A stretch of DNA of 64,000 nt from Escherichia coli (GTDB lineage Bacteria; Pseudomonadota; Gammaproteobacteria; Enterobacterales; Enterobacteriaceae). Position 1 is the first letter of the stretch, and each line of letters opens with the position of its first letter. Below the pieces are notes generated by a model, which searched no databases, was not told the origin of the DNA, and saw only the letters and a program-made list of their open reading frames with translations. The DNA lies in NCBI RefSeq assembly GCF_013122565.1, contig NZ_CP053258.1. One strand, 5' to 3'. This document shows positions 25,523 to 26,229 of this stretch, piece by piece. Position numbers and translations under genes: made by a program.

Positions 25523-26080
25523 TCAGAACTGCATCAGTTCTGCTTCTTTGTCTGCCAGCGCCGCTTCAATTTTCTTGATTGCAGCATCAGTCAGTTTCTG
25601 TACATCGTCCTGAGAACGGCGATCGTCGTCTTCGCTGATCTCTTTATCTTTCAACAGTGCTTTCACTTTGTCGTTCGCGTCACGACGCACGTTACGTACT
25701 GCAACACGCGCTTGTTCTGCTTCACCACGAACGATTTTGGTCAGATCTTTACGACGTTCTTCCGTCAGCGGCGGCAGCGGAACACGGATGTCGCTACCCG
25801 CAGAGTTCGGGTTCAGGCCAAGATCGGACGCCATAATCGCTTTTTCAACGGCCGGAGACATTGAACGATCAAACACGTTGATTTTCAGAGTACGGGAATC
25901 CTCTACCGTTACGCTTGCCAGCTGACGCAGCGGCGTCGGCGTGCCGTAATATTCCACGACAATGCCATCCAGCAGGCTGGGAGAAGCACGACCCGTGCGT
26001 ATTTTGCTGATTTGGGTTTTGAACGCTTCTACGCATTTGTCCATGCGTACTTCAGCATCTTTTCTGATATCGCTAATCAC
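25523..26080 (-). CDS. frr: Ribosome recycling factor
   Basis: 185 aa [34 protein letters not shown]. Confidence 0.95.
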
Positions 26081-26229
26081 GTTACGAATCCTTGAAAACT
26101 TGTCTCAGTCAGACCAGACAGTCACACACAGTGGAAGTGTGCTAAGTATAGCCCTGATTAAACATATTACGGGTAAGATCCCCCGCGATACTTACGCGGA
26201 ATCTTACCCTTATTTATCCATCACGGGAA

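Follow-up and report, generated by a model that had tools for sequence, protein, structure and literature searches.

The inverted repeat downstream of pyrH in Escherichia coli carries the -10 box of an upstream frr promoter in its 5' arm and is interrupted by a dispersed repeat in K-12-type strains

The stretch of DNA analyzed here (64,000 nucleotides; hereafter, the window) belongs to E. coli: a 601-bp probe matched 5424 of the 5426 complete genomes of the species, with an identity of at least 99% in all but one. According to the list of open reading frames, the genes tsf, pyrH, frr and dxr follow each other in this order on the minus strand. The features of the pyrH-frr boundary considered below, in the direction of transcription, are as follows:

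26230-26955, minus strand: coding sequence of pyrH (UMP kinase), taken from the open reading frame list; the region is annotated as pyrH in 5424 E. coli genomes
26230-26232, minus strand: stop codon TAA of pyrH
26081-26229, minus strand: pyrH-frr spacer of 149 bp, the short allele (the MG1655 orthologue has 291 bp)
26224-26229, minus strand: -35-like hexamer TTCCCG of the upstream frr promoter (P2), 17 bp upstream of TAAGAT, with a 3/6 match to the consensus
26171-26209, minus strand: stem-loop, with the 5' arm at 26194-26209, the loop at 26187-26193 and the 3' arm at 26171-26186
26201-26206, minus strand: -10 hexamer TAAGAT of P2, within the 5' arm of the hairpin and identical in K-12
26193, minus strand: predicted start of P2, an A in the hairpin loop, equivalent to K-12 position 192617 (coordinate mapped through the K-12 sequence)
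26177-26179, minus strand: insertion site of K-12-type strains, in which the ATC of the 3' arm is replaced by 145 bp (net +142 bp)
26145-26150, minus strand: -10 hexamer TATACT of the major frr promoter (P1), with the start at 26138 and a minor start equivalent to 26155
25523-26080, minus strand: coding sequence of frr (ribosome recycling factor), with a GTG start

The ends of the two genes place the spacer at exactly the 149 bp given in the preliminary description of this DNA, which had also pointed to a nested inverted repeat about 20 nt after the pyrH stop. Both the position of the repeat and its distance from the stop were confirmed. On the transcribed (minus) strand it reads GGGUAAGAUUCC-G-CGU [AAGUAUC] GCG-G-GGGAUCUUACCC (loop in brackets), a hairpin of 39 nt that starts 21 nt past the stop codon and has a stem of 12 + 3 base pairs and a 7-nt loop. 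The label of a 14-bp palindrome, under which it had been described, was loose: the structure is an interrupted stem of 15 bp and not a perfect palindrome of 14 bp. Its minimum free energy is -25.5 kcal/mol, compared with -10.9 +/- 2.9 kcal/mol in dinucleotide shuffles (z = -5.1), and none of 200 shuffles folded as well. Rarity was gauged by sliding-window folding, as a gapless listing of inverted repeats was judged to be an unfair test; of the 51-nt windows taken from the two strands of the whole 64 kb, only 0.12% fold this strongly. In the same sliding-window folding, the frr terminator reaches -30.4 and the tsf terminator -24.3, and the hairpin belongs to the same class of strength as these two.

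The G+C-rich stem, within the length range of about 5-15 bp, and the short loop are those of an intrinsic terminator. On the sense strand, the 8 nt past the stem (GUAAUAUG) contain 3 U, fewer than the 5 U in 8 nt required of a U-run, in agreement with the earlier remark that a clear U-tract is absent, and a terminator scan around the hairpin called only an off-register sub-stem of 5 bp. Having no U-tract, the hairpin would not be an efficient intrinsic terminator. The covariance models of Rfam 15 gave no relevant match in this region of the window (E-value threshold 10) or at the K-12 locus (threshold 1). A 50-mer across the hairpin is present in one copy per genome (median 1, highest 1, in complete E. 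coli genomes); therefore, the sequence is not a REP-type or other dispersed repeat.

The 5' arm of the hairpin, GGTAAGATTCCGC, carries the hexamer TAAGAT, and a conserved TTTCCG/TTCCCG block directly follows the pyrH stop. From these two conserved blocks and their fixed spacing of 17 bp, the promoter P2, with a start about 7-8 nt further on, was predicted before the published start sites were looked up. Among the Cappable-seq starts listed for this part of MG1655 is one on the + strand at 192617, with a score of 93.9; the listed scores of pyrHp (191812) and of the major frr start (192814) are 22.9 and 868.8, respectively (Ettwiller et al., 2016; PMC4782308). Position 192617 is position 37 of the spacer, the first A of the hairpin loop UAAGUAU, 8 nt downstream of TAAGAT. 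By SMRT-Cappable-seq, full-length capped RNAs were found to extend from 192616 to 193491, that is, to the frr terminator, and longer frr-dxr-ispU(-cdsA) RNAs also begin at the P2 start (Yan et al., 2018; PMC6131387). The 5' arm of the repeat carries the -10 box of an upstream frr promoter that is mapped in K-12 in two datasets. As far as we found, this promoter has apparently been recorded so far in high-throughput data alone.

The promoter is a weak one. Its -10 hexamer matches the consensus at four of six positions, including the A at position 2 and the T at position 6, and the total sigma-70 match is 7/12, which lies below the threshold of the promoter scan, so that P2 was not called. Since the window is identical to K-12 from the pyrH stop to spacer position 50, 13 nt beyond the P2 start, we infer that P2 works in this strain too. 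In an alignment of 21 sequences, not a single indel falls between the pyrH stop and column 62, although columns 32-38 vary freely and indels are common downstream. The motif GGTA(A/T)NAT stands at the same place in Erwiniaceae, Pectobacterium, Brenneria, Photorhabdus and Arsenophonus, and in the last two it is accompanied by a good -35 (9/12 overall). With the -10 box in the 5' arm and the start in the loop, the element is more than a mere RNA signal following pyrH. An RNA started at P2 has the 3' arm only and cannot form the hairpin, which would thus fold solely in RNA coming from pyrH. When folding of the P2 leader onto the ribosome-binding site of frr was tested, the leader showed no significant structure (z = -1.35).

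Downstream of the hairpin, the sequence CTATACTTAGC at P1 is invariant across the 21 sequences. The frr starts listed there by Cappable-seq are the major one at 192814 and a minor one at 192797, with a score of 39.7 (PMC4782308), and the P1 start is given as 192813 by SMRT-Cappable-seq (PMC6131387). A second hairpin, GCACAC-UUCCACU-GUGUGU, lies at 26124-26142 (minus strand), with the major frr start (26138 equivalent) within its 5' arm; as with the hairpin that follows pyrH, its formation requires RNA that enters from upstream. The major frr mRNA has a leader with unusually little structure (z = +1.9).

Read-through RNAs from pyrH into frr exist in K-12. Between 192581 and 192870, the searchable Term-seq table for K-12 has no 3' end, and the SMRT-Cappable-seq data for K-12 list no transcript confined to pyrH (PMC6131387); both negative results concern a strain with a disrupted hairpin and say nothing direct on the intact allele. 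The literature, including Term-seq in pathogenic strains, yielded no usable 3'-end data for any short-allele strain.

Disruption of the hairpin in K-12 is evident from the comparison of the two alleles. The spacer of MG1655, between the end of pyrH at 192580 and the start of frr at 192872, measures 291 bp; the length of about 290 bp given for K-12 in the preliminary description was correct, and the alignment (149 vs 291 bp) confirms that a block of about 140 bp separates the two forms. The alleles differ only within the 3' arm of the hairpin, the short one reading ...CGCGGGGG-ATC-TTACCCG and the long one ...CGCGGGGG-(145 bp)-TTACCCG. A 50-mer across the short junction, which cannot seed on the long allele, was found in 1905 of the 5426 complete E. 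coli genomes (35%), including O157:H7 isolates and NC101. The long allele is carried by K-12, C, MC4100 and E24377A and by about 65% of complete genomes. In some long alleles (strain UTME-3), a 17-bp segment (GCGTAAGTATCGCGGGG) flanked by two GCGTAAGT direct repeats is absent, so that most of the hairpin remnant is gone, and with it the position of the K-12 start 192617. The O145 strain RM9872 carries the long allele, unlike the O157:H7 isolates. O145:H28 is close to O157:H7, and given this kinship the difference would suggest recombination or repeated gain and loss.

The 145-bp block is a dispersed repeat found at 1-8 places per genome (median 5; six in K-12). Its other copies include those in the intergenic regions pheM-pheS and qseG-qseE. 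It is an imperfect palindrome with inverted ends and folds as a single long hairpin. At pyrH-frr the ATC is replaced, the unoccupied pheM-pheS site is longer by two bases (AT), and no unambiguous target duplication is seen. Rfam scans of the pheS and qseG loci were without relevant hits, and no Rfam family was found for the repeat. The RSA family has elements of about 150 bp, with six copies in K-12, and the K-12 insert presumably belongs to this family (RSA, also BEE95), a name that should be taken as a lead. The title of one reference equates BEE95 with RSA. With RSA, ERIC and IRU elements the insert shares a size of about 125-145 bp, imperfect palindromy, terminal inverted repeats, an intergenic location, about six copies in K-12 and presence or absence among strains; it differs from them in that its junctions are not clean and lack an obvious target duplication. 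The similarity to the ERIC primer sequences is only patchy. Of the complete E. coli genomes, 4781 have the pheM-pheS copy, situated about 20 nt past the pheST attenuator terminator, and about 645 lack it. A partial right end of the repeat, about 50 bp long, lies on plasmid pEGY2 (NZ_CP023144.1, 64631-64679), between genes for an MBL-fold hydrolase and an ABC transporter.

To polarize the two alleles, outgroup loci were gathered with the Frr protein from contigs of one genome per species; Salmonella, Citrobacter, E. albertii and E. fergusonii were not among the matches listed. Among these matches, most Enterobacteriaceae outgroups have spacers of 133-172 bp with the same hairpin, and 19 metagenome sequences have the same compact layout of the spacer. 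The 3' arms of the Enterobacteriaceae relatives read (T/A)ATCTTACC, including the ATC that is absent from the long E. coli allele. An exact-protein look-up of Frr returned only E. coli-type loci, with spacers of either 149 or 291 bp. Because the outgroup spacers are short and have an intact, ATC-bearing 3' arm, the short form is ancestral, and it is the K-12-type strains that gained an insertion. Judging from these sequences, the intact hairpin is the ancestral form and the K-12 allele the derived one.

The suggestion in the preliminary description that an element of about 140 bp may be missing here did not find support, in view of the short outgroup spacers and the dispersed nature of the 145-bp block. 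Loss of a normally present element by this strain would agree with the longer spacer of K-12 and of about 65% of complete genomes. However, excision would need to have re-created the ATC exactly, the ATC is part of the intact 3' arm of the short outgroup spacers, and the block itself is multi-copy and dispersed, being also present in some genomes and absent from others at pheM-pheS. The outgroup sequences contradict a deletion, which we consider very improbable. Independent, ERIC-like palindromic insertions of about 125 bp occur in the pyrH-frr spacer of RIT691 (Enterobacteriaceae) and of Kluyvera genomosp. 1; they lie at two different points, one before and one after the GGTAAGAT block.

The two arms of the hairpin are conserved differently: across genera the 5' arm is invariant and the 3' arm is variable yet complementary. 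The metagenome sequences were picked by a pattern that fixes the 5' arm, so that their invariance there follows from the design of the selection, and only the genome set is unbiased. Pairing of the outer stem, GGUAAG/CUUACC, is retained by about 19 of 20 Enterobacteriaceae sequences. Only one stem pair is changed on both sides (G-C vs A-U, columns 45/83), and 21-24 of 500 column shuffles reach the observed covariation scores. Rosenbergiella and Pantoea have different sequences in the hairpin arms. When the duplex energy of the -10 segment was compared with that of shuffled downstream sequence, pairing reached significance in 7 of the 17 taxa, most of them Enterobacteriaceae proper; these taxa are not independent, which makes the combined p-value optimistic. 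Pairing is lost in the relatives L010, L011 and L016 and is mostly not significant outside Enterobacteriaceae. The asymmetric conservation fits, to a modest degree, a promoter arm with a partner that may be kept for pairing.

RNAalifold did not recover the hairpin from the alignment of the whole spacer, a result of the gappy 3' arm, and paired the end of pyrH with ATTCCG of the 5' arm instead. An attenuator-like three-way alternative involving the end of pyrH, the first conserved block and the 5' arm was rejected, as a local hairpin around the stop codon should win and the terminating ribosome covers both partners. This small hairpin (26222-26239, minus strand) encloses the pyrH stop, CACGG-AAUAAUUC-CCGUG, and reads ACGGAA/UUCCGU in relatives. 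Both of its sides are changed in L016 (ACUGAA/UUCAGU), and in the relative L099 the partner is shifted. Its 3' half is the -35-like block of P2.

The same conservation could be that of a DNA operator on either side of the P2 start. Its half-sites would be GGTAAGA (about -17 to -2) and TCTTACC (about +7 to +23), and a putative dimeric regulator bound there would control the upstream frr promoter. Such a site would be consistent with a repeat centered on the mapped start, and the conservation of the sequence of both cores (GGTAAG/CTTACC, about 19/20), with little true covariation, fits a protein site no less than an RNA stem. The half-sites, however, lie at distances that range from about 17 to 25 nt in different genera, and the sequence between them often makes an inner stem of its own, which is atypical of a dimeric operator. 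Changes in the arms are complementary, as in columns 45/83 and in the arms of Rosenbergiella, and no regulator is known. We regard an operator as improbable.

Read on the opposite strand, the repeat could be an intrinsic terminator for antisense transcription entering pyrH from the frr side. The + strand of the window forms a stem of -21.6 kcal/mol (z = -5.9) followed by TTATTTAT, in which 6 of 8 positions are T, enough for a U-run, against 3 U of 8 on the sense side; the AAAT that precedes the stem on the sense strand is conserved (columns 39-42 of the 21-sequence alignment). No antisense promoter or start was found, though, and the Cappable-seq starts listed here are only on the K-12 + strand. 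The genes pyrH and frr are co-directional, so that no convergent gene would need a terminator. An antisense terminator would also leave unexplained both the invariant 5' arm and the sense start in the loop, and we hold it to be slightly more doubtful than an operator.

A third alternative is that the pairing has no function, the 5' arm being kept as a promoter and the 3' arm being a leftover or a product of chance, for example, the relic of an old palindromic element. The weak covariation statistics would agree with this, as would the three lineages that lost pairing with no obvious consequence and the breakage of the hairpin by the insertion in about 65% of E. coli genomes. On the other hand, the core of the 3' arm is kept across genera in which neutral sites are saturated, and the single-copy hairpin sequence is not a repeat. 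Of the 1905 genomes with the short-allele 50-mer, 1892 have it in identical form, whereas several SNPs and a 17-bp deletion mark what remains of the hairpin in long alleles; this difference hints at constraint on the intact hairpin, population (phylogenetic) structure confounding the comparison. Pairing without a function seems unlikely to us, although a little less so than the operator.

The reading that best joins the mapped promoter, the insertion with its polarity and the conservation of the arms is that the boundary of pyrH and frr holds an intact, ancestral two-in-one element, made of a promoter arm and a stem-loop at the 3' end of pyrH. We consider it the probable explanation, with confidence that only slightly exceeds an even balance. 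At the DNA level, the 5' arm provides the -10 box (TAAGAT) of the weak promoter P2, and TTCCCG is placed 17 bp upstream, right after the pyrH stop. Transcription from P2 would begin at the loop A and give transcripts with the 3' arm alone. RNA from the rpsB, tsf or pyrH promoters would contain both arms and fold into the 15-bp stem-loop 21 nt past the stop. This stem-loop may serve as the 3' end of the pyrH mRNA. In that position it may block 3' exonucleases following Rho-dependent termination or processing, and/or act as a leaky pause site or terminator that would shield the frr promoters from incoming polymerases, as an insulator. It is the position of the pairing, together with its conservation, that suggests such a function in RNA. 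In K-12-type strains, the palindromic repeat of 142 bp has entered the 3' arm, 14 nt into the P2 transcript, where it destroys the old hairpin and puts a much longer one in its place.

A stronger form of the two-in-one element would be a dual-use switch, in which the -10 box is deliberately situated in the 5' arm, so that RNA entering from pyrH folds and is stopped or trimmed, and RNA started at the promoter cannot fold. We think it improbable that the element works in this manner. If it did, it would allow cells to adjust the amount of UMP kinase relative to that of ribosome recycling factor, and insertion of the repeat would have rewired this control in about 65% of E. coli, with frr expression differing among phylogroups.

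All parts of the element are of known kinds, namely an internal promoter, a 3' stem-loop and a palindromic dispersed repeat, and the difference between the alleles is ordinary natural variation. Like 3'-UTR stem-loops, leaky terminators and REP stabilizers, the hairpin is a strong G+C stem-loop about 20 nt past a stop codon, between co-transcribed genes with read-through, and its strength is comparable to that of the tsf and frr terminators. Unlike them, it has no U-tract, is single-copy and has a 5' arm that doubles as a -10 box. P2 resembles the internal sigma-70 promoters of the rpsB-tsf-pyrH-frr region in its -10 box with A2 and T6, its 17-bp spacer and the capped end 8 nt on, and in being a second promoter upstream of the main one. 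It differs from them in its very weak -35 (3/6), in being embedded in an inverted repeat and in beginning at the first base past the pyrH stop.

The interest of the locus lies mainly in the compact overlap of these parts and in the reference strain having the derived allele. An apparent "terminator-like hairpin" can be half promoter. The locus also represents a simple natural test case of a small palindromic repeat inserted in a promoter-proximal hairpin at an essential gene. Both frr and pyrH are essential, and their boundary is derived and disrupted in K-12, whereas about one-third of E. coli have the ancestral compact form. Conclusions on pyrH-frr transcription that are based on K-12 may not transfer to strains with the short allele.
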